Below are positions 3,020 to 64,000 of a DNA stretch of 64,000 nt, in pieces. The stretch spans positions 505,947 to 569,946 of the forward strand of contig JACJZF010000001.1 of NCBI GenBank assembly GCA_020635725.1. Direction: 5' to 3'. Position 1 is the first letter of the stretch, and the number at the start of each line of letters is the position of its first letter. The DNA is from Flavobacteriales bacterium. Its GTDB lineage: Bacteria; Bacteroidota; Bacteroidia; Flavobacteriales_F; PHOS-HE28. The translations under genes were made by a program, and so were the position numbers. Below the pieces are notes generated by a model. It was not told the origin of the DNA and did not search any database. It saw nothing but the letters and a program-made list of their open reading frames with translations.

Positions 3020-3350
3020 CGCGCTCACTCCACGATTAGCCGCTGCGCCTCAAGGCGCCCATCAGTTCCCATGAGCTCGAGCAGGTACAAGCCGCTCTCC
3101 GGAATCCGCATCGTTTCAGTGGGGCCGCTCACGGAGCGCTCAAGAACGACCCGGCCCATGGCATCTCGCACCACCACGCGGCAGCGGCCGAGCCGTGGGT
3201 CGAGGGAGAGCCGCACTTCTCCATTGCTCGGGTTGGGATACGCGCTGAACGACTGATTCGCGGCAACCGATGGCAGGCCATTCGGTTCCTGCGCCAGCTT
3301 GATCACGAACGCGTTCCCCGGATCGGGGTGGTCGAAGGAGTCCGATCCAA
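3020..3350. repeat. Copy B of the ~330-bp near-identical segment
   Basis: Same as above. The two genes diverge 5' of this block. Confidence 0.8.
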
Positions 3351-41735: not shown

Positions 41736-41796
41736 GCCGACGAAAGTACCTGCCCGGCTTGCACGGCAAAGGCATGCTCGCCAGCTTGCGCCACCC

Positions 41797-43745: not shown

Positions 43746-43817
43746 GACCCCATAGTTCAATGGATAGAATAGGAGTTTCCTAAACTCTTGATCCAGGTTC
43801 GACTCCTGGTGGGGTCA
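43746..43817 (+). tRNA. tRNA-Arg (anticodon CCT)
   Basis: Hand-folded cloverleaf. Acceptor stem gacccca/tggggtc, D-stem gttc/gaat, anticodon stem ggagt/actct with loop ttCCTaa, T-arm ccagg-ttcgact-cctgg. Confidence 0.8.
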
Positions 43818-43963
43818 CGACCTTGGATTTGCTCGGCGCGGCGATCAGCACCCCCCTCCACACCGCCCTGTGTGAAAGTGCGGGGCCCGTGCGGCCGGGC
43901 GCCCACAGCCTGTCTTGACCTTCGGCACGGCCGCACCTGCGTGCGGTCCGCTGCGCCGTACTC

Positions 43964-44956
43964 ATGCACCGAGCCCTTTCCGCACTCCTGGTCCTGCCGG
44001 CCCTGCAGGCCTTGGCGCAGCCGCCGAACAGCGATTGCTCCACCGCGGCATTGCTCTGCGCCGAGCAGCCCATGGCTGGCAACAACACCGGCGCCACCGG
44101 TGCGCTGCCGGGGTTCTGCCCGAGCACCGATCTGCTGCTCTGGTACACCTTCTTCACCAACAGCGTGGGCGGAACGGTGGATGTGCAGCTCAACGGATTG
44201 GATTGCCCGGATGTGGTGGGCATGGGTGATCAGCTGAGCGTGGTGGTGCTCGCGGGCGATGGCAGCTGCACGCCGGCTTCCTTCACGGCAGTGTCGGTTT
44301 GCGCCCAGGACGATGCCGATTTCACCACGACCACCCAAGCGCTGCTGCCGAGCACGCAATACTGGGTGGTGGTGGCGGGAGCCACGAATGGCGGAGCGAC
44401 CATCGCGGCGCAATGCGACTTCGGGATCGTGGTGCAGGGCCCGGGCGCGGATGTGATCGGGGTCGATTTCGATGCCGGCCCCGATCTGGAGGTGGTGGCC
44501 GGATCATCGGTGCAGCTCGAGGTCATCGGAGGCACCAACTGGAACTGGACGCCTACCTCGGGGCTGAGCGGCAATGGCATTCCCAATCCCATCGCCCTGC
44601 CGCAGGAGACCACCCTGTACGAGGTGAGCACCCAGAGCAACGGCTGCACCTACACCGATACGGTGGTGGTGAACGTGCTGGAGCTGATCAATCCGCCGAA
44701 CACCTTCTCGCCCAATGGCGATGGCATCAACGATACCTGGGAGGTGCCCGGCATCGCCGACTACCCGGGCTCCGAAGTGATCATCTGGGACCGCTGGGGG
44801 CAGAAGGTCTTCAGCAGCAACGGCTACCGCGAGGCCTGGGACGGCACCAACAAGGGTCGCGACCTTTCCGAGGGCACGTATTACTACTTCATCCAGCTCA
44901 ACGAGATCGAGGGCCGCAGCGCGCCCTACCTGGGCTTCGTCTCCATCATCCGATGA
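43964..44956 (+). CDS. T9SS type-B (gliding-motility-associated) C-terminal-domain protein
   Basis: Signal peptide. C-terminal FSPNGDGINDTWEV...IWDRWGQKVF...GTYYYFIQ CTD-B. Confidence 0.75.
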   Translation: MHRALSALLVLPALQALAQPPNSDCSTAALLCAEQPMAGNNTGATGALPGFCPSTDLLLWYTFFTNSVGGTVDVQLNGLDCPDVVGMGDQLSVVVLAGDGSCTPASFTAVSVCAQDDADFTTTTQALLPSTQYWVVVAGATNGGATIAAQCDFGIVVQGPGADVIGVDFDAGPDLEVVAGSSVQLEVIGGTNWNWTPTSGLSGNGIPNPIALPQETTLYEVSTQSNGCTYTDTVVVNVLELINPPNTFSPNGDGINDTWEVPGIADYPGSEVIIWDRWGQKVFSSNGYREAWDGTNKGRDLSEGTYYYFIQLNEIEGRSAPYLGFVSIIR

Positions 44957-45891
44957 GGTACGCGCTGCTCCCCCTTCTGTGCATCGCCGCGCTCAGCGCC
45001 GGGGCGCAGCAGCTCTCGCAGTACACGCAATACGTGTTCAATGCCTTCAGCGTGAACCCGGCCGTGGCGGGTAGCAAGGATTGCCTGGACCTGCGCCTGG
45101 GCTACCGCAAGCAGTGGACGGGCTTCGAGGGCGCGCCGGTCACGGGCTGGGCCAGCTTGCATGGCACGCTGCGGACCAAAGGCAAGCCCTTCGTGGCCAA
45201 CAAGCACGGCATCGGCATGTTCGTGGAATCGGACAATGCGGGCAACTGGGGCTACACGCGCATGCTGCTGGCCTATGCCTACCACATGCAGATGTCCCGC
45301 GATTACTACCTCTCCTTCGGGTTCTTCGGCGGGGCGCAACAGGTGAAGTACGATGTGGGCGGGAGCACGGTGGTGAACTACAACGACCCGGCCCTCGACA
45401 GCCGCTCCAGCGTGGTGGTGATCCCGGAGATCACGCCCGGTGTCTGGGCGTACACCAAGGTGGCGTGGGGCGGCATCAGCATGCACCAGGCATTGGGCAA
45501 CAAGATCAACGGCATCGGCACCGATTCGCGCCTGGCGCGCCAATTCATGCTCACCGGCGGCTACAAGTACCGCATCGGGCGCAAGACCGCGCTGGTGCCG
45601 AGCGCCCTGATCAAGCTCTCCAAGGGCGCGCCCGCCGCCATGGACCTCAACGCCATGGTGGAATGGAACCGCCAGTTCGCCCTGGGCGCCGGTTACCGCA
45701 GCGGCGATGCCGTCACCTTCCTGCTCAAGGTGAGCTTCGCCAAGTACTTCCAGCTCGGTTACAGCTACGATGTGACAACCAGCAACATCCGGCTCGCCAG
45801 CAGCAACACGCACGAGGTGATCCTCGCCATCACCCCGTGCGGCAAGGAGGACATGAGCCGCCGGATGATCAATTGCCCCGCCTTCGATTAG
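44953..45891 (+). CDS. PorP/SprF-family T9SS outer-membrane protein
   Basis: QQLSQYTQYVFNAFSVNPAVAG N-terminal signature. ATGA coupling to the upstream CTD-B gene. Confidence 0.8.
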   Translation: MRYALLPLLCIAALSAGAQQLSQYTQYVFNAFSVNPAVAGSKDCLDLRLGYRKQWTGFEGAPVTGWASLHGTLRTKGKPFVANKHGIGMFVESDNAGNWGYTRMLLAYAYHMQMSRDYYLSFGFFGGAQQVKYDVGGSTVVNYNDPALDSRSSVVVIPEITPGVWAYTKVAWGGISMHQALGNKINGIGTDSRLARQFMLTGGYKYRIGRKTALVPSALIKLSKGAPAAMDLNAMVEWNRQFALGAGYRSGDAVTFLLKVSFAKYFQLGYSYDVTTSNIRLASSNTHEVILAITPCGKEDMSRRMINCPAFD

Positions 45892-45903
45892 AACCCTGAC
45901 GCG

Positions 45904-48900
45904 ATGCGCACCAACGCCCTCTACGCCCTTACGATCGCCGCGCTGCTCTCGCACACCGCTTCCGCGCAGCATGCCGGAGGCCGTACCCTGCATTGGGTGG
46001 GCGGCAGCGGTCACTGGTCCGATGCGGAGCACTGGAGCCTGCAAGCGCAAGGCGCGGGTGGTGCGGCGGTACCGGGCCTGGCGGACAATGCGGTCATCGC
46101 TGCGGATGCGGAGCTGACACTGGTGATCGATGGAAGCGCGCGCTGCCATGACCTGCAGGTGGATGCGCGCGCGGGCTTCGTGCGCGTGCAAGGCGATGAA
46201 CGCGCGGAGCTGCGCGTGCTTGGCGATTGGCGCATGCAGGGCAGCATCCATTGGGACCTGCGAGGCCGTGTGCGTCTGATGGGCGACGCGGCAGGCTTGG
46301 TGGTGGATACGCGCGGCATCCCGCTCGCCGGGCAATTGACCTTCGATGGTGCGGGTTCGTGGACGCTGATGAGCGACCTGCTCCTCCGCGAGGGCGACAT
46401 CACCTTCAAGGAAGGGACCGTGCATTCCGCAGGAGGTCTGCTGACGGCGCGCACCTTGTGCAGCGAAGGCCGCGCACCGAAACAGCTGATGGCGGGCAGC
46501 GGCCTGGTGCAGCTGGCGCAAAGGCCAGAGGCTGGTGTGCTGGAGCGCACCGTGAACGCGCAGGACGCGATCCTTACCGTTGGTGGTGAGCCCACGGACT
46601 GGCCGCAGCGCCCGGTCATGGAACGGGATGCGCGTGATGTGAACGTGTGCGCCACCGGCGCGGGGCAGACACCCTTCACCGCAACCACCAGCGCCCTCAG
46701 CAACTACAGCGGATTCAATGTGCGCTGCCGCGGCGAATGCAACGCCACGGTGACCGTGAACGTGGCCGGTGGCATCGGCCCGTTCACCTATTCATGGCTA
46801 TTCGGAGGTCCGGCCACGCAGACCTGGACCACGGCCTGCGGTGGGCCACAGATTGTGGTGGTGACCGACCAAGGGCAGGGCGTTAGCTGCGGCGTGACGC
46901 TGAACGTGACCGAGCCGAGCCCGCTGGGCGTGATCTTCTTCGGCCAGGGAACGCCGCCCACCTGCGCCGATGTGTGCAACGGAACTCGCACGGCATTGGC
47001 GATCGGAGGCGTGACACCGCATACCTATAATTGGAACAATGGCGCGGGTTCGGGTTCCTCCTTCAACCAGCTGTGCGCCGGGGTGAATTCGCTGCGGATC
47101 ACCGATGCGAACAACTGCACCTTCGACACCACCTTCACCTTCAACCTGCAGCCCATCTCGCCCGGGCTCACCTTCACCAGCAACAGCTGCTTCGGCGATT
47201 GCAACGGCACGGCCACGGTGAATCCCACCGGTGGAACAGCGCCCATTTTGGCCACCTGGAGCCCGGCGCCCGGCGGCGGGCAGGGCACCTACAACGCCAC
47301 CGGCCTGTGCGCGGGCAATTACACGGTGCTGCTTTCCGACGCGAACGGCTGCGATACCACCGTCGCCTTCATCATCACGCAGCCGCCCCCCATCCTGCCC
47401 AACGCTCTTGTGACGAACGCGACCTGCTTCGGTGCGTGCGACGGAGCGGCTACTGTTACGCCTTCCGGCTCGCCGGGTCCCTTCGATTACAACTGGACAC
47501 CCTCGCCCGGCGGTGGCCAGGGCACAGGCTCGGCCACCGGCCTCTGCGCAGGCAATTACACGGTGCTGATCACCGACCAGGTGAGCGGTTGCGACACCTT
47601 GGTGCCGATCCTGATCGATGCGCCTCCATCCATCGATATCCAAGGAACCGTAACCGACGCCAGCTGTTCCAATACCTGCGACGGCGAGATCGGCATCGTG
47701 GTCAACGGTGCCGTGCCTCCGTTCACCATCACGTGGTCGCCGGCACCGCCTAGCGGCCAAGGGACCCAAGCCATCAGTGGCCTTTGTCCAGGTGATTGGA
47801 GCTGCACCTTCACCAATTCCAACGGCTGCGACACCACGGTGACCTTCACCGTGAACGCGCCGCCGCCCTTGGTCGCCTCGGTGCAGACCACCGATGTGAC
47901 CTGCGCGGGTGAGTGCGACGGCATGGCCACGTGCCCAGCGGTGACCGGCGGAACAGCACCCTACGCGTTCCTGTGGTCTCCTGCGCCCGGTTCCGGACAG
48001 GGAACCGATACTGCCCAGGACCTCTGCGCCGGCAACTACACCGTGCTCATCTACGATGCGAACGGGTGCGATACCACCATCGCCTTCGTGATCAACGAGC
48101 CGCCACCGTTGCAGGTGGTGCCGAGCCAGACCAACGTGACCTGCGGCGGCCAATGCGATGGCACGGCGAGCGTGCTGGTCTCCGGCGGGGTGCCGACCTA
48201 TACCTATCAATGGACCCCTGAGCCGGGTGGCGGGCAAGGCACGGCCAACGCCACCGGCCTCTGCGCGGGAGCGTATTCCGTGCTGATCACCGATGCGAAC
48301 GGATGCACCTTCACGCAGCCATTCATCATCCTGGATGCCGTGGCGCTGCAGATCTCGTTGCAGGTGCTGCCCGCGAGCTGTCCGGGTGATTGCGATGGCT
48401 CGGCTGGTGTGATCGTCACCGGAGGACAAGCGCCTTACAGCTACAATTGGCAACCGGCACCGGGTGGTGGCCAGGGCACGCCGAATGCCACCGGCCTCTG
48501 CGCGCAGGCCTATTCGCTCACCATCACCGATTTCCTCGGCTGCGACAGCACCATCGCCTTCACCGTGCCTGCGCCGCCACCGATCATGGTGTCGAGCACA
48601 TTGAATGAGCCCACGTGCAGCGGCGATTGCGATGGCACGATCGACCTGGTGGTCTCCGGTGGGAATGGCGCCTTCACCTACAGTTGGTCGCCGCCCCCCG
48701 GCAGCGGACAGGGAACCGCCAATGCGGGCGGGCTCTGCGCGGGCAGCTATCAAGTGGTGATCGCGAGCGGTGCGTGCGACACCACGCTCACCTTCCAGCT
48801 CACGGCCCCGCCGCCCATCGATGCGGCGCTGACCACTACCGACCCCAGTTGCGCGGGTGCGTGCGATGCCACGGCGAGCCTTTCCGTCTCGGGAGGAACG

Positions 48901-51900
48901 CCGCCCTACGGTTATGTATGGGCGCCTGCTCCCGGCGGCGGCCAAGGAACGCCCGATGCGGTTGACCTCTGCCCGGGCAACTACACGGTGCAGGTGACCG
49001 ATGCGGCAGGCTGCGACACGCTCATCGCATTCGTGATCAACGATCCGCCGCCGATCACCGTGGATCTGGAGACCACGCCGGCGAGCTGCGGTGGGGCATG
49101 CGACGCAACAGCCACGGCCACGGTTACCGGCGGCGTGCAGCCCTACACCTACGATTGGCAACCAGCGCCGGGCGGCGGGCAAGGAACGCCCAACGCCACG
49201 GGCCTCTGCCCAGGAGCATACGTGCTCACGGTCTCCGATGCGAACGGATGCACGGTGGATCTGCCCTTCACCATCAGCACGCCATCGGGGATCGATGCCC
49301 AATTCACCTCCACACCAGCGAGCTGCGGGAACAATTGCGACGGCACGATCAATGTGGTGGCGAGCGGCGGGATCCAACCCTATACGTGGACCTGGTCGCC
49401 GGAGCCGGGCGCGGGGCAGGGCACGCCGAATGTGAGCGGATTGTGCCCCGGCACCTACACGCTGCAGATCACCGATGCCGCGCAATGCGATACCGTGATC
49501 CAGGTGCTCATCACCTCGCCGCCGCCCATTGTCCCGAACGGCAGCTCCACCGATGAGACCTGCAACGGACCATGTGACGGCACCGCTACGGTGAATCCCT
49601 CGGGCGGGCAGCCGCCGTTCAGCTTCGTCTGGAATCCCGCGCCACCTGTGGGCCAGGGCACCAACAGCGCATCGCTCCTGTGCCCGGGCCTGTGGAGCGT
49701 GACCATCACCGATGCGATCGGCTGCGACACCACCATCACCCTGGAGGTGATGCCCAAGGACCCCATCGTCGATGGCTTGGTATGGACCAACGCCACCTGC
49801 CCGAACGCCTGCGACGGCACGGCCAGCGTGAACCCCACAGGCGGCATTCCTCCGATCACCGATATCCTGTGGATTCCTGATCCCCCCGTCGGACAGGGCA
49901 CTCCGAACGTGAGCGGCCTCTGCCTCGGGTCGTGGGAAGTGCGCGTATTCGACTCGGTGGGCTGCTTCAGTTCCACCACCTTCTTCGTGAGCGCGCCGCC
50001 GCCTTTCCAGAGCGGCTTGGTGACCACCCCGGAGACCTGCGACGGACCATGCACGGGCACCGCTACCGTCACGCCCTCGGGCGGCACGGGCAGCATCGGG
50101 GTGTTCTGGGATCCGCCTCCTGGTGGCGGTCAGGGCACCACGGCGGCCACTGGTCTTTGCGCCGGCATCACCTACAGTGTCACGCTCACCGATGACAGCG
50201 GATGCGATAGCACCTTCACGTTCACCATTGATCCGTTCGCGGCTATCGTGCCCAATAGCAGCAGCACGCCGGTGAGCTGCTTCAACGTGTGCGATGGCAC
50301 CGCAATGGTGAGCCCTACTGGTGGAGTTGGGCCGTATACCTACAGCTGGTCTCCCGAGCCTGGTGGCGGGCAGAACACGCCGCAGGCAACGGGCCTGTGC
50401 GCAGGCATTGCCACGGTTACCATCACCGACCTCAACGGATGCTCGATCGAAGCGGAGATCCTGATCGATGGGCCGCAGCCGATCCTGGACAATGCCACGG
50501 TGGAAGCGATCACCTGCGCGGGCACCTGCGATGGTTCGGTCACGCTCGCGGTCACCGGCGGTGTCGCCCCCTACACCTATCAGTGGACACCGGTGCCGCC
50601 CAACGGTCAGGGCCAGCCAACGGCGACCTCGCTCTGCCCCGGTAATTACACGGTGGTCGTCACCGATGCGGCCGGCTGTGCAGCGAGCTTCAGCTACGAC
50701 CTGTCCGCGCCGCCTCCCTTGGTGCTCTCGCTCACCCTCACGCCGAGCGAATGCCAGAACTGCATCGGCGCGGCATCGGTCTCGATCAATGGTGGCGCGT
50801 TGCCCTATGGCATCGAATGGCTTGGCCCTGGTGGTGCGGTCATCGGCACGGACCCGGACATCATCGATCTGTGCGCAGGGCTGTACAGCGTGCGGGTCAC
50901 CGATGGCAACGGTTGCATCGCACAGCAGGCCGTGGTGATCACGGATTCCGATGGCGAGGCGATCACCACCACCGATGGCACCACCGGCTGCCCGAACACC
51001 TGCGACGGCGCTGTGAGCGTGAGCTTCACCTGTTCCGATCCGCCCTGCGTGATCGCTTGGAGCGACGCGCTGGGCAATGATCTCGGCCAGAGCGGCACTG
51101 CGTTGAGTGGCCTCTGCCCCGGCGACTACCTCGTGAGCGTGACGAATGGCTCGGGCTGCCTGAGCATCGATACGGCAACGGTGGTGGCGCCGCCGCCGAC
51201 CACCTTGCTCATCAGCAGTTCGCCCGTGAGCTGCGCCGGTGCATGCGATGGCGTGGCCACCGTGGGGGTCAGCGGCGGGATACCGCCGTACCAATTGACG
51301 TGGACACCAGCACCCGGCGGCGGTCAAGGCACGCCGCAGGCCACCGGGCTCTGTGCCGGAGTGTACGAGGTGCTCATCAGCGATGACGGCGGATGTGATA
51401 CCACCGCGCAGGTCTTGATCACGGAGCCTGGCCCCTTGGTCACCGGCGCGATCGTGCTCGGTGTCTCCTGCTCGGGGCAATGCGACGGCAGCGTCACGCT
51501 GGCCATCGATGGCGGCACACCGCCCTATGCGGTGATCTGGTCGCCTGTTCCGCCGAGCGGGCAGGGCGTGCCGGGCGCGTTCGGCCTGTGCGCCGGCGAT
51601 TGGACCGCGACCATCACCGATGCCAACGGCTGCACCTTGGTGGAGACCTATGCCATCGCGGAGCCGCAGCCCTTGCTCGTGAGTGTGAACACCACGCCGA
51701 GCACCTGCCCCAATTGCGACGGCCAGGCCGAAGCGATCATCAGCGGCGGTACCCAGCGCTACGACGTGAGCTGGACCTTGGGCGCCACGGTGGTGAGCAC
51801 CGATCCGCTGGCTACCGATCTCTGCGGCGGACTGTACCGGCTCACGGTGAGCGACGCCAACGGCTGCTCGGTGACGCAGGCCGTGCAAGTGCCCGATGGC

Positions 51901-54900
51901 AACGCGGAAGTGCTGACGCCGCAGAACGGGCAGACCACCTGCGCGAATAATTGCGATGGCACCGTGGGCGTGAGCTTCACCTGCACTTCGCCGGCGTGCA
52001 ACGTGGTGTGGACCGATAGTGACGGCAATGTCATCGCCACCAACACCCCGACCGTATCGAACCTGTGCGTGGGCGTGTACACCGCTCAGGTCACCAACGG
52101 GAGCGGCTGCGTGAGCTTCATCGATGCGGAGGTGCTGCCATCGCAATCGATCATCCCCAACCTGAGCAGCACGCCTGCGAGCTGCTTCGGGCTCTGCGAT
52201 GGAACGGCCACGGTGAATCCGGTAGGCCTCACGGGCACGCCGACCTTCACGTGGTCGCCCGAGCCCGGTGGCGGGCAGAACACGGCGCAGGCCACGGGGC
52301 TGTGCGTCGGTGTGTACACCGTGCTGATCGCCGATGCGACCGGATGCGATACGCTCGTGCAGGTGCTCATCACCGGTCCGGATGAGATCGCGATCGATGG
52401 CATCGTTCAGGATGTGACATGCCAAGGCGCGTGCGATGGCGCGGTGGATGCCGTGGTTTCCGGCGGAACGGCACCTTATCTCTATGACTGGTCGCCGGCG
52501 CCCGCTCTCGGCCAGGGCACGCCCAACCCGCGCGGGTTCTGCGCCGGCCCGGTGACACTGATCATCACCGATGCGAACGGATGCACCAGCCAGCAGGTCT
52601 TCGACATCGCCGAGCCTGCCTTGCTCCAGGCCGCGTTGAGCACCACGCAGAGCCAATGCAACATCTGCAATGGCACGGCCTCGGTCGCGGTGAGCGGCGG
52701 CACGCAACCCTACTTCGTCACGTGGTACCACGGCGCGAGCGTATTGGGCACCGGCGAGAGCATCGCGGGCCTCTGCGCGGGCTTCTACACGGTCAACATC
52801 ACCGATTCCGCGCTCTGCTCGCTGGTGCAAACCGTTGTGATCAGCGACATCGACGGTGAGGAGCTCACCGCGACGGATGATGTCACCAGCTGCCCTGGCG
52901 CATGCGATGGCGAGGTGAGCGTGTCGTTCAACTGCCAGGATCCGCCTTGCCAGGTGGCGTGGTTCGACGCGGGCGGCAACGATCTGAATGAGCCCGGCAA
53001 CGTGCTGGGCGCCCTGTGCGCGGGCTTGTACTTCGCGCAGGTCACCAATGCATCGGGCTGCGTCAGCATCGATACGGCCTTTGTCACCGAGCCCGATCCG
53101 ATCGTGCCCAACCTGAGCACCACGCCCGTTACGTGCGCGGGTCTCTGCGATGGCACGGCTACCGTTGGCCCATCCGGCGGCATGCCCGGCTACACCTTCT
53201 TGTGGAGCCCCGGCGGCGAGGACACGCCGCAGGTCACCGGGCTGTGCGCGGGGACTTACAGTGTCACCATCGGTGACATGGCAGGCTGCTCCATCGTGGT
53301 GGATGTGCTGATCACCGGCCCGCAGCCGCTCACGGCCAGCGAGACCATCTCGCCCATCACCTGCAACGGCGCATGCGATGGCGCCATCACCGTGGTGCCC
53401 GGCGGAGGAACGCAGCCATACACCTATAGCTGGTCACCGCCGCCACCGGGCGATCCCACGCAGCCCACGGTCATTGATCTGTGCGCAGGTGATTGGTCTG
53501 TGACCATCACCGATGCCAACGGCTGCGACACCACCATCACCTACACCTTGGTCGATCCGGAAGTGCTGGATGCCCAGCTCAATACCACGGACAATGCGTG
53601 CTTCGGCGATTGCCAGGGCACTGCGGCGCTCACCCTCAGCGGGGGCGTGCCTCCGTATGGCATCACCTGGTTCAACAGCCTGGGCGCGGTGATCTCGCAA
53701 GACATGACCGATATCGCCGATCTGTGCGTGGACGATTACAGCGTGGAAGTGGTGGATGCCAACGGATGCACCGTGACCCTGCCCTTCAGCATCGGGCAGG
53801 GCCCGGCGATCGAGGCCAACCTCACCTTCACCGGCGAGACGTGCTTCGGCCCCTGCGACGGCACGGCATCGGTCTCTCCGAGCGGCGGCATCGGCACCTT
53901 CATCATCGAATGGCGTGATGCCGATGGCAATCTGATCGCGCTCGATGTGACCGATGTGACCGGCCTGTGCGCCGGGGACCATTCCGTTACCATCATCGAT
54001 CAGCTGGGGTGCGACAGCACGTATGCCTTCACCATATTGCCGTACACCGCGATCGCCGATGGCGCCACCGTGACCGATGTGCGGTGCAATGGTGCCTGCG
54101 ATGGAAGCATCGTCTTGAGCGCCACCGGTGGCGTTGGACCGTTGAGCTATGATTGGAACCCGGTTCCGCCCAATGGCCAGGGCAATGCGGAGGCTACCGA
54201 CCTCTGCCCCGGCACGTACAGCGTGACGATCACCGATGGCGCGGGCTGCGGCGCTTCCTTCTCCTACACCATCAATGAGCCCAGCGCGATCACGGTAACG
54301 GTTGATGCGGTGACCGATGCGAGCTGCGCGAACGCAATGGATGGCGCGATCAGCATCACCGCTGCCGGCGGCGTCCCCGACCTGGGCTTCGCTTGGTCTG
54401 GGCCAGGCGGATTCAGCTCGTCGGCGGAGGACCTAACGGGTATCGCGCCAGGCGCCTATGTGCTCACGGTGACCGATGGCAACAACTGCACGCTCACGGT
54501 GCCGATCACGGTGAACGCGCTCTCTACCGTTCAGGCCGATGCCGGTGCCGATGTGACCGAGTGCGCCGGTGTGGACATCACCTTGGATGGAAGCCTGAGC
54601 ATCGGTGCGCTCACCTATCAGTGGCTCGATGACCAAGGCAACGAAGTGGGCACCGCGCCGACCGTGGCACTATCGGGGTTGACCGCAGGCGTCTACGTGT
54701 ACACGCTCAATGTGGCCGACGGACCCTGCACTTCCACGGACCAGGTGACCGTGACGGTGCTGGACCTGCCACTGGCAGACGCGGGCAATGACCAGACGAT
54801 CTTCCTAGGCGATTTGGTGACCTTGGGCGGCGCGCCCACCGCGCCTTCGGGCTCCACCATCTACTGGCAGCCCGATTCACTGGTGAGCGACGCCGCGAGC

Positions 54901-55275: not shown

Positions 55276-55279
55276 AGCC

Positions 55280-56212
55280 ATGAAGAACATCCGCCTCCTT
55301 CTTCCGCTCGTCGCGATGCTCTGGGCGCTCCCCGGCCGGGCGCAGCAGTTGCCGCAGCTCACGCAATACGTCGCCAACGACTACCTCTTCAACCAGGCCG
55401 TAGCCGGCAGCCGTCCATTCTTCGAGCTGCGCAGCGGGCATCGCTACCAATGGGTGGGCGTGCAGGATGCGCCGCGCACCTTCACGCTTAGCGGCTCCAC
55501 CCCGCTGGGCGCCAAGATGGGCGTGGGCGGATACCTCTTCACCGACATCGTGGGCCCCACGCGCCGCACCGGCATCCAATTCTCCTGGGCCTATCACCTG
55601 CGCATCACGGGCGATGTGAAGCTCTCCATGGCGCTCTCCGGCGGACTGCTTCAGTTCCTGATCGATGGGTCGAAGATCCAGTTGCACGACCAGGGCGACC
55701 CCACGCTGGACAATCAGCTGCGCGGCGAGCTGAAGCCCGATGCCACCTTCTCTTTCCTCTTCTATCACCCCCGGTGGTGGGTGGGGGCCGCTGCCCCGCA
55801 GTTGCTCAACAACGAAGTGGTCTTCCTGCACGAGAACACCGGCACGCTCAGCCGCATGGACCGCCATTACTACGCCATGGGCGGCTATCGCCTGCCCATC
55901 GGCGCCGACCTGAAGCTGGAGCCCTCGTTCATGCTGAAGTACGTGGACCCCGTGCCCATGAAGGTCGACATCAACCTCACCGCCCGCTACAAGGATGCGT
56001 TCTGGATCGGCGCCGGATACCGCACCAACGATGCCTGGTGCGCCATGCTCGGGTACTGGCACAAGCAGCAGTTCCAGTTCGGCTATTCCTACGACGTGAT
56101 CACGAGCAACCTGCGCAATTACAGCACCGGTACGCATGAGGTGATGCTGGCCATCACCATCGGCCGCGGCCGGGCCGAAGCGGCTGCCGCGGCCTCGCCC
56201 ACGACGCCGTAA
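55280..56212 (+). CDS. PorP/SprF-family T9SS outer-membrane protein (second copy)
   Basis: QQLPQLTQYVANDYLFNQAVAG. Starts 5 nt after the SprB-like stop. Confidence 0.8.
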   Translation: MKNIRLLLPLVAMLWALPGRAQQLPQLTQYVANDYLFNQAVAGSRPFFELRSGHRYQWVGVQDAPRTFTLSGSTPLGAKMGVGGYLFTDIVGPTRRTGIQFSWAYHLRITGDVKLSMALSGGLLQFLIDGSKIQLHDQGDPTLDNQLRGELKPDATFSFLFYHPRWWVGAAAPQLLNNEVVFLHENTGTLSRMDRHYYAMGGYRLPIGADLKLEPSFMLKYVDPVPMKVDINLTARYKDAFWIGAGYRTNDAWCAMLGYWHKQQFQFGYSYDVITSNLRNYSTGTHEVMLAITIGRGRAEAAAAASPTTP

Positions 56213-56334
56213 GACACGGTTCGTCGGCCAAGGTGTGTCAATGGTCGACCACGCTTAGAGCAGCAAGCGATTCCGCTGGACGGAGGGGTGGCTTATCCGT
56301 ACCTTGTGCCCCCTTTTTACCCGACGGGCAGCTC

Positions 56335-59300
56335 GTGGTGCAAACATCCTCCTCTGCGTCATTCCCCAAGCTGTTGCGCCTTGGCCTGCTCCTGAACGGG
56401 TTGCTGGTAGGCGCGCTCGGCTTCGCGCAGGTGAATGCCTGCACCGGGCTGTTCCTGGACTCCGGCGGTGCGGCAGGCAATTACGGGAACAACGAGGACC
56501 AGACGGTCACGATCTGTCCGGAGGGCGGTTCGGGTTCCGGCCCGAGCACCTCGGTACGCTTCACGGACTTCGCCATAGCGGCCGGGCCGGGCGATACGTT
56601 GTGGGTGCATGATGGCTCGGATCTGCTCGCGCCGATTATTGCCACGGGCACCTCGGCCAGCTCCCTCGTGGGCAATACCTACACCAGCTCCGATCCGTCG
56701 GGCTGCCTCACCTTCCGGTGGAAGAGCAATGCCGCCGGTGTAGCCGCCGGCTGGTTCGCGCGGATCGTGACCACGCCGCACCCGGGCGACAATTCCAGCG
56801 CCACCCTCTGCTCCGCGGCAGCGCCGGTCTCGCTCTTCTCCTTGCTCTCCGGCAACCCCGATCCCGGCGGTTCATGGAAGGACCCCTTGGGAGCGCCGCA
56901 TGGCGATACGTTCAATCCGGCGGTGGACCCGGGAGGCAATTGGGTGTACACGCATTCCGGCCCATCGCCGTGCTCACCGGCTTCCGCTACGCTCACACTC
57001 ACCAAGGTGCAGGCACCGGACCCCGGTACCAACAGCACATTGACCCTGTGCGCCACCGATGGACCAACGAGCCTGTTCAGCGCCTTGGGCGGGAGCCCCG
57101 ATCCGGGCGGCAGTTGGACCGCGCCCGGCGGTGGCGCGCATAGCGGAACATTCAATCCGGCCACTGATCCGGCAGGCTTGTACACCTACACGGTAACCGG
57201 CACCTCGCCCTGCCTGTCTGCTTCGGCCACCGTCACGGTCACGGTGAATGCCCCGCCCAACGCCGGTAATGACGCCACCACCACCGTCTGCAGCAATGGC
57301 GCGCCCTTCAGCCTGTTCGCCTTGCTCACCGGCTCCCCGAGCGTCTCCGGCGCATGGACCGGACCGGGCGGAGGCCCCGTGAGCGGCACCTATACCCCCG
57401 GCACCAGCACGCCCGGCGTCTATACCTATACGGTCGCCGGCCTGCTGCCTTGTGCTCCCGATGCGGCAACCGTCACGGTAACGCAGGTGGCTGCGCCCAA
57501 TGCCGGCACCTCCGCGTCGACTACGGTATGCAGCGACGATGCGCCTTTCTCGATGCGCTCGTTATTGGGCGGCAGCCCTGCGGCTGGCGGAACGTGGGTT
57601 GGTCCTGGCGGCCCCCACGCCGATCAGTTCAATCCGGCAGTGGATCCAGCTGGGGTGTACACCTATACCGTTGCTGGTACGCCGCCTTGCGCGAATGCCA
57701 CCGCCACCTTGACCATCACGGTGCGACCAGCGCCGAATGCCGGCACCGATGGGGCCGTCACCCTGTGCAGCACCGATGGGGTCTTCCAGCTCTTCGGCGC
57801 GCTCGGTGGCTCTCCGGATGTGGGCGGAACGTGGCGTGATCCGGCCAATCAGATCCACTCCGGCAGTTTCACCCCGGGCACCAGCACGCCGGGCATCTAC
57901 ACCTATACCGTTACCGGCCTCTCGCCTTGCGACCCGGATGTATCGCAGGTGACCGTGACCGTGAACGCCGCGCCCAATGCCGGTATCGGAGCTACCGTGA
58001 CCCGTTGCTCCAATGCCGCGAACGTGAACCTGTTCAATCAGCTCGGCGGTTCACCGAACGCCGGTGGCACATGGACCGGGCCTTCGGGGGCGCACAGCAA
58101 CATCTTCGATCCCGATGTGGATCCGGCAGGCGCGTACACGTACACGGTCGTAGGACTCACGCCCTGCGCGAATGCACAGGCCACGATCACCATGGTGGTG
58201 GTGCAGGAGCCGGATGCGGGCACCAACGGCTCCATCACGGTGTGTGGCAACGATGCGCCTTTCAGCCTCTTCGGCGTGTTGGGCGGTACTCCGGACGGAA
58301 ACGGCACATGGACCGCTCCGGGCGGTGGCGCCTCCACCGGGACCTTCACGCCTGGAACGAGCACGTCGGGGGTTTACACCTACACGGTCGCGGGAACACC
58401 GCCTTGCGCGAATGATCAGGCCACGGTGACCGTTTCCGTGGTGGCCCCACCGAACCCCGGGACCAATGGAAGCCTGACCGTGTGCAGCAACAATGCCGCG
58501 GTCGATCTCTTCACGCTGCTCGGCGGCACGCCTCAAGCGGGTGGCACGTGGACCCGGCCCAACGGCACGGCGCACACCGGCACCTATCTGCCGGCAACGG
58601 AACCGAGCGGCAACTACACCTATACCGTTGCCGGCACCCCGCCCTGCGCCTCGCGCAGCGCCGTGGTGCAGGTCACTCGGGTGATCGCGCCGAACGCAGG
58701 AATCAATGGCAGCATCACCGTGTGCAGCACCAACGCGGCCTTCGACATGATCACCGTGCTGGGTGGCTCGCCGGGCGGAGGCGGCGCGTGGTTCAATGCG
58801 GCACTTGCCTCGGTCCCCGCGGTGTTCACCCCGGGCACCACCGTCCCCGGCAACTATGCGTACGTGCTTCAAGGCACCGCGCCCTGCGCCAACGATACCG
58901 GCTTCGCCACGATCAATGTGAACACCGCGCCGAATGCGGGGCAGAATGCGTCGATCACCGTATGCAGCAGCGACGCGCCTTTCCAGCTCATCGATGAGCT
59001 GAACGGCACACCCGATGCGGGCGGAACCTGGACCCGGCCCAACGGCACCGCGCACAACGGCACCTTCACGCCGGGCACCTCCGCGCAGGGTGGCTACACC
59101 TATACCGTGGCAGGCCTCACGCCGTGCGTGAATGCCAGCGCCGTGGTGGTGGTGAGCGTGAACACCCAGCCCAACGCGGGCATCAGCGACAGTTTCACAC
59201 GATGCAGCACCAGTGGTCCCGTGGACCTCTTCGATGAGCTCAATGGTTCGCCGAATCCGGGGGGCACTTGGGTCGGTCCTTCGGGCCCGAGTTCAGGAAT

Positions 59301-62300
59301 CTTCCAGCCGGGCACTTCCACCCCGGGCGTGTACACCTACACTGTTGTTGGCATCGCGCCGTGCACCAACGCAACGGCCACCATCACGGCCAACGTGAAC
59401 CAAGCGCCCAATGCCGGCGGCGATGGTGCAGTGACCATTTGCCAAGGGACGGCATCGATCGATCTCTTCACCGTGCTCACCGGCACCTTCGACCTGAATG
59501 GAACGTGGCAGGACGAGGACAACACCGGCCAGCTTTCCGGCAGCTTCTTCAATACCTCCACCATGGGTCCTGGCACCTATGAGTTCCGGTATGAGGTGCC
59601 GGCCAACGGCGCGTGCCAAGCGGATCATGCGCATGTGGAAGTGACCATCGTGGCGTTGCTGGAGGCTGGTTCCAACAGCAGCACGAACACGTGCAGCAGC
59701 AACACGCAGGTGAATCTCTTCAACCTGTTGGGCGGCAATCCGCAGCCCGGTGGCACCTGGATCGACCTCAGTGGAACCGGCGCTTTGAGCGGGCAGCTCT
59801 TCAACGCGCAGCAGGCGGGGCCCGGGAGCTATCAGTTCCGTTACCTCTTGACCGGCACGATCGGCTGCAGCTCGGATTCGGCGCAGGTGACGCTCTCGGT
59901 GATCGCCGCGCCCAACGCGGGCGGCAACGGCAGCGCGATCACGTGCAGCAACGCGGGCCCGTTCAACATGTTCCCCTTCCTCAGCGGTACGCCGCAAGGG
60001 GGCGGATCATGGTTCGCGGGCGCTCCGAACGGAAGCCCGCACGCGGCCACCTATGATCCGGCCACCGACAATCCCGGCGATTTCTACTACAAGGTGAACG
60101 GCGTGTCGCCGTGCGCGAGCGCCTTTGCCAAGGTGACCGTGACTGAGGTGCAGGCGCCGTGGGCGGGCAATGATGCGAACACCACGGTGTGCTCCAACGG
60201 CGCGCCGTTCAGCATGACGGCGCTGCTCACCGGCAACCCGAACGCGGGCGGTACCTGGTACCTCAACAACCAGAACCATGGCGATCTCTTCGTGCCCGGG
60301 CAGGATGTGCAGGGCGTGTACGAGTACCGCGTGACCGGGCAGGCCCCGTGCACGCCCGATGCCGCTTTCCTCACGGTGTCCGTTACCACGGCTGCCAACG
60401 CGGGCTGCAGCGGCTCGGTCACGGTATGCGATAACGCCTTGCCCTTCGTGCTCTACAACGTGCTCACCTGCAACCCGCAGAGCAACGGCGCCTGGTTGGG
60501 CCCTGACCTGATGCCGCACAACGGCACGTATCAACCTGGCGTGTCGCAGGTCGGCGACTACCTGTACATCGTGCAGGGCGATGCGCAGTGCGCGAGCGAC
60601 ACCAGCGTGGTAACCGTGTTCGAGACTCCGGCGGCCAACGCGGGCTGCCCGGGCGCAGGGTCCTTCTGCTCGAACAACGCGCCGGTGAATCTCTTCACGC
60701 TCTTGGGTTGTTCCCCGGATCCCTTTGGCACGTGGACGGGTCCGGGGAATCAGCCATCCGATGGTTTCTTCAATCCGGCCACCGGCACATCGGGCACCTA
60801 TACCTACTCGGTCACGAACGGATGCGGTTCGGCGAGCGCCACGGTGGTGGTAACGCTGAATCAGCAGCCCAATGCCGGGTGCAACCGCACGATCACCCGC
60901 TGCACCAACAGCCAGGCCTTCGCCATGATCGATGAGCTGGGCTGCAACCCGCAATCGGGTGGGGTGTGGACCGGGCCCTTGCCTGCGACAACGGTCATGA
61001 ACGGGGTCTTCATCCCCGGCGTGACGGCCCCGGGCACGTATCGCTACCGCATCACCGGGCAAGGCGCTTGCGCGAATGCCTCCGCGCAACTGACGATCAA
61101 TGTGAACACGATGCCCAATGCAGGCATCGACAACGATACGCTGCTGTGCGCCACTTCCGGACAGGTGAACCTCTTCCCGCTACTTGGTCCCACGGCCATG
61201 GTCGGTGGCAGCTGGTTCTTCAATGGGATCACGCCGCACACGGGCATCGTGAACCCGCAGACCGACGCCACCGGCAACTATGTGTACCGGCTCACCGGCC
61301 AATCGCCCTGCGCCAACGATGAGGCCATCGTTTACGTGCAGATCTCGCAACCGCCCAACGCCGGCTTCGATGGCCTCGCTCAGGTCTGCAGCGATGATGG
61401 TGCATTCCCGCTCATCGGATACTTGGGCGGATCGCCCATGCTGAATGGCAACTGGACCAATCCTTCGGGCGCCAATCACAACGGACTGTACGTACCCGCC
61501 ATCGATGGTCCCGGCCTGTACAAGTACAAGCTCCCCGGCAATGGCGGCTGCGGACCGGACAGCTCGTATGTGACCGTGCTCGAGTACGATGCAGTGGAGG
61601 CCGGCACCGGCAGCGTAACGGTGGTGTGCAGCAATTCGGCTGCTTTCCCGCTGTTCAGCTTGATCACCGGCGGGCAGACTGGCGGTACCTGGACCGACCC
61701 ATTCGGTAACGCCTTCACCGGCACCTTCATACCAGGTGTCTCTGAGCCGGGTGGGTACACCTACCGCCTGCAGGGCACAGCACCCTGCGAGAACGATTCC
61801 GCCCTGGTCACGGTATTCGTGAACGATGCCGCCGATGCGGGCATCAGCACACTGGCCTCGGTATGCTCCAGTTCCGATGCGGTGACATTGATCTCGCTGC
61901 TCGGTGGCACGCCCGACAACAACGGCACGTGGACCTACAATGGCGACCCCACCGATCCCATCTTCGATCCAGATGTGGACGATCCTGGCGTGTACATGTA
62001 TACCGTGGAGGGCGCAACGCCTTGCACCACGGCTACGGCACAAGTGGTGGTGACCATTACCCAGCAGGCATCGGCGGGTGAGGACGGCTCGCTGACGGCT
62101 TGTGTGGGAGCCGATGCGGTGCAGCTCTTCGACGGGCTCGGAGGATCGCCGGACCCCGGCGGTGTCTGGTCCAACAACTGCGGCTTGGGCGGGCTCAACG
62201 GCGGCATCTTCGACGCATCGGCGCTGGCTGCAGGAAGCAGCTGCACCTTCACCTACACGCAGCCCGCCGATGGCCCATGCGATGCGGTGAGCGCGCAGGT

Positions 62301-64000
62301 CACCTTGGAGATCGTAGATGCCTTGGATGCCGGCGCGGACAGCAGTTCCGCGGCTTGCCAGGGCCAGGTGGTCGATCTTTACGCGTCCATCGGCGGCGCT
62401 CCGCAGCCGGGCGGCTTCTGGATCAACGTGGACAATGCGCCCGGCGTGTTCGGCGGCTTCTTCAACACCGCGGCCGTGAGCGCGGCGGGCAGCGTGTGGC
62501 ACTTCGATTACGTGCTGCCTGGCAGCGCGGCGTGCGTATCGGATACCGCCCATGTGACCGTGGAGGTGCTTGAAGGGCCCTTCGCCGGTTGCGATGGAAC
62601 GCTCTCGCTGTGCAGCATCTCGCCACCGGTGATGCTGGCCACGGCGCAGAGCTGCGGGCCGAATGCGAGCGGCTTCTGGCTGAATCCAGCGGGCGGCTCG
62701 CACTCCGGCAGCTTCATCGCCGCTACGGATCAGGCCGGAGCCTACAAGTTCGTGGTGGAGGGCCTGGGCGCTTGCCCGAGCGATACGGCCGTGGTTACCG
62801 TGAACCTTACGCAGGCGGCCAACGCGGGTACCGATGCCGCATTGAGCATCTGCTCCGATGACCTGCCCGCGGACATGTTCGCCTTGCTCGGCCCGAACGC
62901 GCAAGCCGGAGGCAACTGGACCTACAACCCGGGCGGCCCGCCGATCCCGCACAGCAACGTGTACAATCCGGCGGTCGATCTGCAGGGTTCCTACGTGTAC
63001 ACCGTGCAGGGCAATTTCCCTTGCCCGAGCCGCTCGGCGATCGTCACGGTAACCGAGTCGCCGGCCCCGAATGCCGGATGCGACAGCGAAGTGTCCGTGT
63101 GCTCGAGCGATGGCCCCATCAACATGCGCCTGGCGCTGGGCTGCAACGCGCAGGCCGGCGGTACTTGGGTGTACGTGACCGGAGGTGACACGCCGCACGG
63201 GAACTTCTTCGATCCGGCGGTGGACCTGCCCGGTGATTACCGGTACACGGTCACGGGTCAGGCACCTTGCGAACCGGCCACCGCCCTGCTCACCGTGAGC
63301 TTGATCACGGCGGGCAATGCAGGCACCACCACCACCGTGCAGGCTTGCGTGACCCAGACTTCCGTGGACCTGCTCGCCGAACTGGGCGCGCAACCAGGAG
63401 GCACGTGGACCGATCAGAACAACTCACAGGCCCTCACGGGCAACATCTTCGACCCAAGCGTAGCGGGCAATGGCACATGGCCCTTCCTGTACACGGTCCT
63501 GGGCAGCGGGCCATGCCCCACGGTGAGCGCCACGGTCACGGTGCAGGTCGGCACGGGCAGCAGCGCGGGCAACGACACCAGCATCACCATCTGTGGCAGC
63601 ATCACCGACCTCGACCTCTTCACCCAGCTGGGCGGCAATCCCACGGCAGGCGGAAGCTGGCTCGACATCAATGGCAATGGCGCGCTCTCTGCGAGCGGCG
63701 TGCTCAATGCCACCCTGCTCCCCGTGGGTGGCACACAGCCCTTCGGATACACAGTGGTCGACCCAGGTTGCGGCGATGTGAGCAGCGTGATCCTGGTGAC
63801 CACCACGGCCTACCCGCAACCCGGATCCTCCGCGAGCATCACGCTATGCAGCGATGGGGCACCGGTGGACCTCTTCACTCAGCTGGGCGGCGCACCGGAG
63901 AGCGGCGGCACCTGGCGCGATCCGGATGGCGCGATCCACTCGAGCACCTTCGACCCGGCGACCGATTCCCAAGGAGGCTACTCCTACACGGTCGTTGGCA
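56335..64000 (+). CDS. Giant secreted protein (partial; continues beyond the window). N-terminal CUB-like domain followed by at least 28 tandem two-cysteine repeats of about 80 aa.
   Basis: Frame 1 is open from the GTG at about 56335 to the window end, which is why it has no entry in the ORF track. Signal peptide VQTSSSASFPKLLRLGLLLNGLLVGALGFAQVNA. CUB-like segment CTGLFLDSGG...TICPEGG...VRFTDFAIAAGPGDTLWVHDG...CLTFRWKSN. Repeat unit APNAG.D...T.CS....F.LF..LGGSP..GG.W..P.G..HSG.F.P.T..PG.YTYTV.G..PCA...A.VTVTV. Confidence 0.7.
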   Translation, partial: MVQTSSSASFPKLLRLGLLLNGLLVGALGFAQVNACTGLFLDSGGAAGNYGNNEDQTVTICPEGGSGSGPSTSVRFTDFAIAAGPGDTLWVHDGSDLLAPIIATGTSASSLVGNTYTSSDPSGCLTFRWKSNAAGVAAGWFARIVTTPHPGDNSSATLCSAAAPVSLFSLLSGNPDPGGSWKDPLGAPHGDTFNPAVDPGGNWVYTHSGPSPCSPASATLTLTKVQAPDPGTNSTLTLCATDGPTSLFSALGGSPDPGGSWTAPGGGAHSGTFNPATDPAGLYTYTVTGTSPCLSASATVTVTVNAPPNAGNDATTTVCSNGAPFSLFALLTGSPSVSGAWTGPGGGPVSGTYTPGTSTPGVYTYTVAGLLPCAPDAATVTVTQVAAPNAGTSASTTVCSDDAPFSMRSLLGGSPAAGGTWVGPGGPHADQFNPAVDPAGVYTYTVAGTPPCANATATLTITVRPAPNAGTDGAVTLCSTDGVFQLFGALGGSPDVGGTWRDPANQIHSGSFTPGTSTPGIYTYTVTGLSPCDPDVSQVTVTVNAAPNAGIGATVTRCSNAANVNLFNQLGGSPNAGGTWTGPSGAHSNIFDPDVDPAGAYTYTVVGLTPCANAQATITMVVVQEPDAGTNGSITVCGNDAPFSLFGVLGGTPDGNGTWTAPGGGASTGTFTPGTSTSGVYTYTVAGTPPCANDQATVTVSVVAPPNPGTNGSLTVCSNNAAVDLFTLLGGTPQAGGTWTRPNGTAHTGTYLPATEPSGNYTYTVAGTPPCASRSAVVQVTRVIAPNAGINGSITVCSTNAAFDMITVLGGSPGGGGAWFNAALASVPAVFTPGTTVPGNYAYVLQGTAPCANDTGFATINVNTAPNAGQNASITVCSSDAPFQLIDELNGTPDAGGTWTRPNGTAHNGTFTPGTSAQGGYTYTVAGLTPCVNASAVVVVSVNTQPNAGISDSFTRCSTSGPVDLFDELNGSPNPGGTWVGPSGPSSGIFQPGTSTPGVYTYTVVGIAPCTNATATITANVNQAPNAGGDGAVTICQGTASIDLFTVLTGTFDLNGTWQDEDNTGQLSGSFFNTSTMGPGTYEFRYEVPANGACQADHAHVEVTIVALLEAGSNSSTNTCSSNTQVNLFNLLGGNPQPGGTWIDLSGTGALSGQLFNAQQAGPGSYQFRYLLTGTIGCSSDSAQVTLSVIAAPNAGGNGSAITCSNAGPFNMFPFLSGTPQGGGSWFAGAPNGSPHAATYDPATDNPGDFYYKVNGVSPCASAFAKVTVTEVQAPWAGNDANTTVCSNGAPFSMTALLTGNPNAGGTWYLNNQNHGDLFVPGQDVQGVYEYRVTGQAPCTPDAAFLTVSVTTAANAGCSGSVTVCDNALPFVLYNVLTCNPQSNGAWLGPDLMPHNGTYQPGVSQVGDYLYIVQGDAQCASDTSVVTVFETPAANAGCPGAGSFCSNNAPVNLFTLLGCSPDPFGTWTGPGNQPSDGFFNPATGTSGTYTYSVTNGCGSASATVVVTLNQQPNAGCNRTITRCTNSQAFAMIDELGCNPQSGGVWTGPLPATTVMNGVFIPGVTAPGTYRYRITGQGACANASAQLTINVNTMPNAGIDNDTLLCATSGQVNLFPLLGPTAMVGGSWFFNGITPHTGIVNPQTDATGNYVYRLTGQSPCANDEAIVYVQISQPPNAGFDGLAQVCSDDGAFPLIGYLGGSPMLNGNWTNPSGANHNGLYVPAIDGPGLYKYKLPGNGGCGPDSSYVTVLEYDAVEAGTGSVTVVCSNSAAFPLFSLITGGQTGGTWTDPFGNAFTGTFIPGVSEPGGYTYRLQGTAPCENDSALVTVFVNDAADAGISTLASVCSSSDAVTLISLLGGTPDNNGTWTYNGDPTDPIFDPDVDDPGVYMYTVEGATPCTTATAQVVVTITQQASAGEDGSLTACVGADAVQLFDGLGGSPDPGGVWSNNCGLGGLNGGIFDASALAAGSSCTFTYTQPADGPCDAVSAQVTLEIVDALDAGADSSSAACQGQVVDLYASIGGAPQPGGFWINVDNAPGVFGGFFNTAAVSAAGSVWHFDYVLPGSAACVSDTAHVTVEVLEGPFAGCDGTLSLCSISPPVMLATAQSCGPNASGFWLNPAGGSHSGSFIAATDQAGAYKFVVEGLGACPSDTAVVTVNLTQAANAGTDAALSICSDDLPADMFALLGPNAQAGGNWTYNPGGPPIPHSNVYNPAVDLQGSYVYTVQGNFPCPSRSAIVTVTESPAPNAGCDSEVSVCSSDGPINMRLALGCNAQAGGTWVYVTGGDTPHGNFFDPAVDLPGDYRYTVTGQAPCEPATALLTVSLITAGNAGTTTTVQACVTQTSVDLLAELGAQPGGTWTDQNNSQALTGNIFDPSVAGNGTWPFLYTVLGSGPCPTVSATVTVQVGTGSSAGNDTSITICGSITDLDLFTQLGGNPTAGGSWLDINGNGALSASGVLNATLLPVGGTQPFGYTVVDPGCGDVSSVILVTTTAYPQPGSSASITLCSDGAPVDLFTQLGGAPESGGTWRDPDGAIHSSTFDPATDSQGGYSYTVVG
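57017..64000 (+). repeat. Tandem coding repeat array of about 240 bp (at least 28 units) inside the partial giant gene
   Basis: The recurring ccNaaYgcSggc (PNAG) motif appears at about 240-bp spacing from about 57.0 kb to the window end. Confidence 0.7.

Follow-up and report, generated by a model that had tools for sequence, protein, structure and literature searches.

Analysis of a 64,000-nucleotide (nt) stretch of contig JACJZF010000001.1 from a Flavobacteriales bacterium (the window, i.e. the whole stretch of DNA that was analysed) indicates that the region from position 43964 to the window end probably represents the first five genes of a conserved and tightly packed seven-gene block, which is a type IX secretion system (T9SS) block of type B from an uncultured Flavobacteriales lineage of high guanine-plus-cytosine (GC) content, and in which each secreted cargo is served by the carrier encoded just downstream of it. 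The order of the block is cargo 1, SprF-1, cargo 2, SprF-2, cargo 3, SprF-3 and a PorE-like protein. Each cargo would be exported by Sec and would then pass through the SprA translocon by means of its C-terminal domain (CTD) of type B, after which the PorP/SprF-family beta-barrel whose gene comes next downstream would pick it up, keep it bound and thereby anchor it on the cell surface. The pairing is deduced from the order of the genes, from their translational coupling and from the conservation of their synteny, in the light of experiments in Flavobacterium johnsoniae; as such it restates an established model, to which the present locus adds a further example.

The genes form a single run on the + strand from position 43964 to the window end, in a window with a GC content of ~64%. 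Cargo 1 (43964–44956, +) is a protein of 330 amino acids (aa) with a putative signal peptide, an N-terminal beta-sandwich domain, an immunoglobulin (Ig)-like domain and a type B CTD (44690–44941, +; aa 243–326), the latter being matched by PF13585 (CHU_C, 7.6e-26) and by TIGR04131 (aa 243–326; 74.7 bits, cut-off 35). Its AlphaFold2 (AF2) model has a mean pLDDT of 88.9 and is all-beta, with three predicted beta-sandwich domains; a fold search with this model returned only generic multi-Ig matches with low TM-scores, and no functional match for the N-terminal domain. SprF-1 (44953–45891, +; 312 aa) is a PorP/SprF-family outer-membrane carrier, matched by PF11751 (3.2e-64) and over its full length by TIGR03519 (221.3 bits, cut-off 90.55). 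Cargo 2 (45904–55275, +; 3123 aa) is SprB-like, with SprB repeats in 24 stretches (5.5e-176); its type B CTD (55015–55266, +) is matched by CHU_C at aa 3038–3108 (7.7e-22) and by TIGR04131 at aa 3038–3121 (61.3 bits, cut-off 35). It is followed by SprF-2 (55280–56212, +; 310 aa), a second PorP/SprF-family carrier (PF11751, 2e-74; TIGR03519, 244.5 bits, cut-off 90.55), for which a PDB sequence search at E<=0.01 yielded no relative of solved structure. Cargo 3 (56335–64000, +) begins with a GTG start codon and its open reading frame (ORF) is still open at the window end, which cuts it at aa 2555. The cargos have hydrophobic N-termini ending in AQ or AQQ, as judged by eye. The gene and domain calls of an earlier note, made from the letters of this DNA alone, were thus upheld, with the genes located where it had placed them and with family matches far beyond chance.

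Direct reading of the junctions identified an ATGA overlap between the start codon of SprF-1 and the stop codon of cargo 1 (44953–44956), as the earlier note had reported, while the cargo 2/SprF-2 junction (55273–55282) reads TGA-agcc-ATG, so that the gap (55276–55279) is 4 nt rather than the 5 nt given in that note, a difference of counting only. In the third pair, which was observed in a close relative (described below), the overlap is again 4 nt, and the spacings from cargo to own carrier are therefore −4, +4 and −4 nt, with a porP/sprF-like gene directly 3' of every cargo. The distances from carrier to next cargo are +12 nt (SprF-1 to cargo 2) and +122 nt (SprF-2 to cargo 3). No terminator-like sites were seen on the + strand within the array, and scans for sigma-70 promoters and terminators gave nothing above shuffled sequences, although these scans are not designed for Bacteroidota promoters. 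A tRNA-Arg gene (CCT; 43746–43818, +), 145 nt upstream of cargo 1, delimits the block on its left side.

The 2555 aa of cargo 3 encoded within the window have neither a Pfam match nor an NCBIfam passenger-domain match (a sub-threshold 'invert_tail' match was not used), and its type B nature cannot be seen from the window alone. A contig that is 100% identical to the window (L001; Logan) reaches only 603 nt past its end. However, an ENA contig with 97.2% DNA identity to the window over 17.7 kb (L005) encodes a 2832-aa protein, P0001, which is 98% identical to cargo 3 and which carries CHU_C at aa 2746–2830 and, at its very C-terminus, TIGR04131 (aa 2746–2832; 52.8 bits, cut-off 35). The stop codon of cargo 3 is accordingly expected ~277 aa beyond the window edge, and an open-ended or CTD-less cargo 3 was rejected, as P0001 terminates after 2832 aa and carries this domain. 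A protein search furthermore returned more than 100 homologs of cargo 3 from metagenome-assembled genomes (MAGs) labelled 'Flavobacteriales bacterium', which are of very similar length and nearly all of which possess a C-terminal CHU_C domain.

The full-length layout of cargo 3, as provided by P0001, comprises a putative signal peptide, an N-terminal domain of ~110 aa (for which no family match was found), 31 Ig-like repeats, a spacer of ~90 aa and the type B CTD. The repeats are tandem units of ~80 aa each that extend over aa 145–2655 of P0001; a repeat hidden Markov model (HMM) built from the window places 30 of the 31 within it (56767–63999, +), the last one being cut. Alignment of the units revealed two invariant cysteines per repeat together with conserved G..W and Y.Y motifs. 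An AF2 model of two repeats (pLDDT 97.8) predicts two Ig-like beta-sandwiches, for which Foldseek ranked highest, among PDB entries, Ig-like domains from Aureispira GhpA and from animal adhesion proteins of the Ig superfamily. Judged from these models, the most fitting description of cargo 3 is that of an extended rod built from Ig-like domains.

In L005, the cargo 3 gene overlaps by 4 nt with a third PorP/SprF gene, encoding SprF-3 (305 aa; 9.8e-86; TIGR03519, 282.8 bits). One nt after SprF-3 lies a gene for a 735-aa protein with TPR (aa 25–122), PD40, CarboxypepD_reg (aa 435–497) and OmpA (aa 628–713) domains; TPR matches aside, its top PDB match is 6top ('OmpA family protein'). A four-domain architecture of TPR, beta-propeller, CarboxypepD_reg and OmpA_C-like domains is described for PorE (PMC12773672). 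Despite this architecture the protein is here named PorE-like, because it scores below the NCBIfam cut-offs of both PorE (NF052230; 333.1 against 600) and the CHU_0125 OmpA-like family (NF053607; 389.5 against 620); its signal peptide has, by inspection, no lipobox cysteine. The genes beyond it are on the opposite strand. As L005 adds SprF-3 and the PorE-like gene before this strand switch, the block is considered to consist of seven genes. The earlier note had proposed that the array continues into a third, different giant cargo, had advised that the contig be extended to find the end of this cargo and any further sprF, and had named a giant ORF ending without a type B CTD as the outcome that would speak against it. 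The third ORF is indeed present in the window; its type B CTD and the sprF gene that follows it were found in the 97%-identical relative only.

The assignment of each carrier to the cargo upstream accommodates all six cargo and carrier genes. It further agrees with F. johnsoniae, in which 12 type B substrates have been described and where the cognate sprF-like genes are located directly downstream and are needed for secretion (PMC12618676). We also considered an offset arrangement in which each SprF serves the cargo downstream, so that SprF-1 would be the carrier of the SprB-like giant in the manner of F. johnsoniae SprB/SprF. Such an arrangement would match a carrier with a cysteine-containing tail to the SprB-like protein across a gap of just 12 nt, and two other loci have a comparable order: in L038 a Cys-tail SprF gene is followed by a giant ORF, while in L034 (10001–14044) a PorP/SprF gene with a C-x-C tail (...ACACPKYSL; ...GEQACACPKYSL) lies directly upstream of its only CHU_C neighbour, a 1008-aa protein with PKD repeats. 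However, offset pairing orphans two genes (cargo 1 and SprF-3), it disregards that the 4-nt overlaps sit at the cargo-to-SprF junctions and that 122 nt separate SprF-2 from cargo 3, and it is at odds with the tested F. johnsoniae carriers, which are encoded downstream of their cargos. Additional evidence was obtained from two distant lineages reached through a search of representatives. L036 holds a stand-alone pair, consisting of a small cargo that is 31% identical to cargo 1 over its full length (E 2e-45) and a Cys-tail, SprF-1-like carrier, after which the next gene is on the other strand, leaving the carrier without any downstream cargo. L037 holds a small cargo, an SprF-1-like carrier, an SprB-repeat protein of 2181 aa and an SprF-2-like carrier, with the same tail pattern as in the window. 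These two loci support cargo 1/SprF-1 and the SprB-like protein/SprF-2 as evolutionary units, as judged from their sequences, and offset pairing is regarded as improbable. The proposal of the earlier note that each SprF is dedicated to the cargo encoded upstream is thereby strengthened, given the tight coupling, the retention of pairs as units elsewhere and the fit to the F. johnsoniae experiments.

To assess conservation, one genome per species was scanned with SprF-2 as the query; the present species was absent from this set, in which the best match was 86% identical. The scan returned 24 loci, 23 of which are orthologous loci from Flavobacteriales-like MAGs. The gene order SprF-1, cargo 2, SprF-2, cargo 3, SprF-3 (and the PorE-like gene where reached) is kept at every locus of sufficient length (L005–L028), with identities to the window across species of 54–83% for SprF-1, 61–88% for SprF-2, 60–79% for SprF-3, 50–67% for cargo 2 and 45–65% for cargo 3. 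Where the ORF was read intact, cargo 2 orthologs are 3107–3129 aa long, and members of the cargo 1 family, which are 55–98% identical, have an invariant length of ~330 aa. Among 120 cargo 3 homologs, 31 repeats were counted in 60, 30 in 28 and 32 in 19 (i.e. 30–32 in 107 of the 120). Cargo 1 heads the block in two long assemblies with differing upstream genes, and since the genes upstream differ in L032, the block is taken to be movable as a unit relative to its surroundings. In the long-read MAG L008 (JADJOG010000007.1, 683–20573), several ORFs stand in place of cargo 2, cargo 3 and SprF-3; these breaks are probably assembly frameshifts and not pseudogenes.

The earlier note had read the tandem pairs as a sign of a diversifying adhesin repertoire, which would imply fast evolution through repeated duplication of a cargo–adaptor cassette. 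The alternation of cargo and carrier in three pairs whose passenger regions differ, and the lower conservation of the cargos compared with the carriers (45–67% against 54–88%), could be taken to favour this interpretation. Against it, gene content and order are identical in 23 other species genomes, the length of cargo 2 and the repeat number of cargo 3 are near-fixed, and the cargo 3 repeat HMM finds no match in cargo 1 or cargo 2. Furthermore, the three carriers of the locus are only 32–37% identical to one another, compared to 54–88% to their orthologs, and its CTDs 32–42% to one another, from which it follows that the carriers are old paralogs and not recent tandem copies; recent tandem duplication was rejected on the same grounds. 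Diversification is thus highly improbable, and that claim of the earlier note was not borne out: by sequence comparison, the block is an old and stable module rather than an array that is recently duplicating or diversifying.

The tail classes of the carriers, which are conserved, are the one detail that goes beyond known systems. Of the three carriers only SprF-1 possesses conserved tail cysteines, and each tail type is conserved within its own ortholog group. The SprF-1 tail (45838–45888, +; PCGKEDMSRRMINCPAFD) contains Cys296 and Cys308 and conforms to the consensus ...THEvILxiTPCGxEDxSRRxINCPAF[DE], i.e. C-x12-C-P-A-F, with both cysteines invariant in 18 of 18 orthologs as well as in the window, L030 and L032. 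SprF-2 tails have no cysteine in any of 25 sequences and are Pro/Ala-rich and variable in sequence and length, while the SprF-3 tail ends in ...NYDLRFFTGRTVSPRYF and likewise has no cysteine, the exception being the frameshifted L008. A three-way alignment places Cys308 of SprF-1 opposite a serine in both SprF-2 and SprF-3, followed in each case by an aligned proline, although this Ser-Pro is kept among orthologs in SprF-3 only. The strict Cys-Xaa-Cys pattern of SprF was found in none of the three, as SprF-2 and SprF-3 have no tail cysteine and SprF-1 has C-x12-C, where the pattern for comparison was taken from its description in PMC12635249 and from one metagenomic example (L034).

The same tail features were surveyed in the 150 representatives of 50% clusters that are nearest to SprF-1 (P0241–P0390), 143 of which are full-length. 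Approximately 59 of the 150 have two cysteines (C-x8-19-C), 31 a single cysteine, 47 none and one a C-x-C; within the last nine residues of the 143 full-length representatives, Cys-Pro occurs in 73 and Ser-Pro in 13. A near-terminal [Cys/Ser]-Pro-x-x-[Phe/Tyr/Trp] motif is thus widespread in PorP/SprF C-tails, and two-Cys tails of the C-x8-19-C kind are far commoner than the published C-x-C among SprF-1 relatives.

The predicted fates of the three pairs are inferred from sequence, read against three papers. In F. johnsoniae, the CTD/shuttle pair sets whether a cargo rides the gliding machinery or stays static; the Fjoh_3952/3951/3950 triad, in which Fjoh_3950 is PorE-like, is static, while the mobile cargos are without an adjacent PorE-like gene (PMC12618676). 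SprB remains bound to SprF, and a PorE-PorP-PG1035 complex exists in Porphyromonas gingivalis; since several F. johnsoniae porP-like genes adjoin porE-like genes while sprF does not, PorE-linked cargos were proposed to be static (PMC9143113). Additionally, a disulfide between the SprF tail (Cys324-x-Cys326) and Cys343 of GldK is needed for sustained helical movement, though not for export, and close SprF homologs are reported to share the C-x-C tail without exception (Liu et al. 2025, PMC12635249). According to the literature, the tail cysteines of PorG vary in number and spacing. On this basis, a disulfide of the tail cysteines might link SprF-1 and its small cargo to the gliding track that contains GldK and hence make them mobile, the SprB-like cargo 2 with its Cys-less SprF-2 might have no covalent coupling to the track, and cargo 3 might constitute, together with SprF-3 and the PorE-like protein, a static, peptidoglycan-tethered fibre.

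A more general form of this proposal, which we regard as tentative, is that the carrier C-tail acts as a sorting code written in the near-terminal [Cys or Ser]-Pro-x-x-aromatic motif, whereby a covalent link would attach carriers with Cys tails to the GldK track, and static cargos would go with carriers that have a Ser tail or no tail. The mover would then be cargo 1/SprF-1, and the SprB-like fibre would be static or moved only indirectly. In this lineage as well as in L036 and L037, the Cys-tail carrier always accompanies the ~330-aa protein and not the SprB-repeat giant beside it.

The opposite assignment, in which cargo 2 and SprF-2 would be a functional SprB/SprF gliding pair that moves along the track independently of any tail disulfide, and in which the cysteines of SprF-1 would have a structural role only, is rather unlikely. 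F. johnsoniae has a sprC-sprD-sprB-sprF operon, the SprB of which is ~6500 aa long. Cargo 2 resembles SprB in its 24 SprB repeats, its type B CTD and the sprF gene downstream, and F. johnsoniae SprF retains weak track interactions that are independent of the disulfide. However, the genes upstream of cargo 2 encode a type B CTD protein and a PorP/SprF protein, unlike sprC and sprD, and at 3123 aa it is half the length of SprB. Moreover, the SprF-2 tails, Cys-less in all 25 sequences and variable, contrast with the C-x-C that is reported to be invariant in close SprF homologs and needed for sustained movement.

Somewhat less likely still is that all three pairs are static, with one PorE-like protein tethering all carriers to peptidoglycan and the cargos forming a fixed coat or adhesion fibres unrelated to gliding. 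Such a role would be in keeping with a single PorE-like gene that closes one tightly packed array, with the binding of PorE to PorP in P. gingivalis and with the static nature of PorE-linked cargos in F. johnsoniae. Nevertheless, the 1-nt gap couples the PorE-like gene to SprF-3 in particular, L036 and L037 have the cargo 1/SprF-1 pair without a PorE-like gene, and the conserved tail cysteines of SprF-1 would be left unexplained.

Several points weigh against the seven-gene block with dedicated carriers and the fates assigned to it. Adjacency alone does not fix pairing, as the carrier precedes the cargo in L034, and crosstalk between carriers is documented in F. johnsoniae (PMC12618676). The SprF-1 tail has C-x12-C and not the tested C-x-C. 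The PorE-like protein falls below both NCBIfam cut-offs and, because it is encoded in one operon with all three pairs, might serve each of them. Finally, what is known of the type B CTD in cargo 3, of SprF-3 and of the PorE-like gene comes only from the 97%-identical relative and not from this exact genome.

Further signs of a T9SS were detected at the other end of the window, where two adjacent paralogs of ~550 aa (1279–2955, −, and 3028–4653, −) lie in a stretch of lower GC content (0.56 against ~0.64). Both have weak SBBP beta-propeller matches and a C-terminal type A CTD, with TIGR04183 scores (23.6 and 23.4 bits) just at the cut-off of 23. These two type A CTD proteins and the PorE-like gene point indirectly to a T9SS in the genome. 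Among the remaining genes, leucyl-tRNA synthetase (22261–25704, −) is unusually long at 1148 aa and contains an insert (~24403–24717) with a DUF559 domain (Vsr-like endonuclease fold; aa 330–434, 6.3e-32) placed after the N-terminal catalytic part and before the editing domain, and a gene at 17546–18157 (+) encodes a CpeT/CpcT-family (DUF1001) protein (1.7e-47) in a non-cyanobacterial genome. Upstream of the block, an ORF at 41734–43692 (+) encodes a 653-aa protein with a PNGase F C-terminal-like domain (5.2e-11); it overlaps by 275 nt with an opposite-strand ORF of 587 aa (40248–42008, −) that has no family match, and the true starts of both are uncertain, since both have high GC at third codon positions (GC3). 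A PNGase-like gene is also present upstream of the block in L030. Judged by isolate names, several genomes of the clade derive from wastewater-plant metagenomes.

The block represents a clean and well-conserved example of a mechanism established in F. johnsoniae and P. gingivalis, and its main value lies in the annotation of an uncultured Flavobacteriales clade. If the tail pattern turned out to predict which of the type B cargos travel on the gliding track, sequence would suffice to separate mobile from static adhesins across Bacteroidota, and the small, widespread 330-aa cargo would be a previously unnoticed track passenger.

The locus resembles the F. johnsoniae type B/shuttle pairs, such as SprB/SprF (Kulkarni 2019 as cited; Paillat 2025, PMC12618676; Gorasia 2022, PMC9143113), in that a TIGR04131 cargo gene is followed by a PorP/SprF gene and in that the cargos are large, repetitive, beta-rich surface proteins, one of them with SprB repeats. 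It differs in that three pairs are concatenated in one block; those of F. johnsoniae are reported to form operons of their own. Compared with SprB/SprF in particular, the gene upstream neighbourhood consists of a type B CTD protein and a PorP/SprF gene instead of sprC/sprD, the SprB-like protein has 3123 aa against about 6500, and its carrier is without a C-x-C tail. Similarly to Fjoh_3952/3951/3950 and PG1035/PorP/PorE, the third pair presents cargo 3, SprF-3 and a TPR/PD40/CarboxypepD_reg/OmpA protein in that order, with a 4-nt overlap and a 1-nt gap, an arrangement linked to static, cell-wall-tethered cargos. Unlike in those triads, the PorE-like protein scores below the NCBIfam cut-offs and has no lipobox cysteine, and the triad was seen in the 97%-identical relative.

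With regard to SprF–GldK coupling, for which it is a candidate, SprF-1 shares the presence of two invariant periplasmic C-tail cysteines, the second of which stands in a near-terminal C-P-x-[FY]; in the C-x-C tail of L034 the second cysteine is likewise followed by proline. Conversely, the spacing in SprF-1 is C-x12-C and the partner cargo is a 330-aa protein and not a giant adhesin. GhpA of Aureispira is a giant T9SS-dependent fibre. In structure, the repeats of cargo 3 are matched best by its Ig-like domains (PDB 9fly, 9flp and others; E 8e-6 to 1e-4), but with ~20% identity and low two-repeat TM-scores of 0.38–0.43 and no sign of hooks or predation; the likeness is that of a generic Ig fold.

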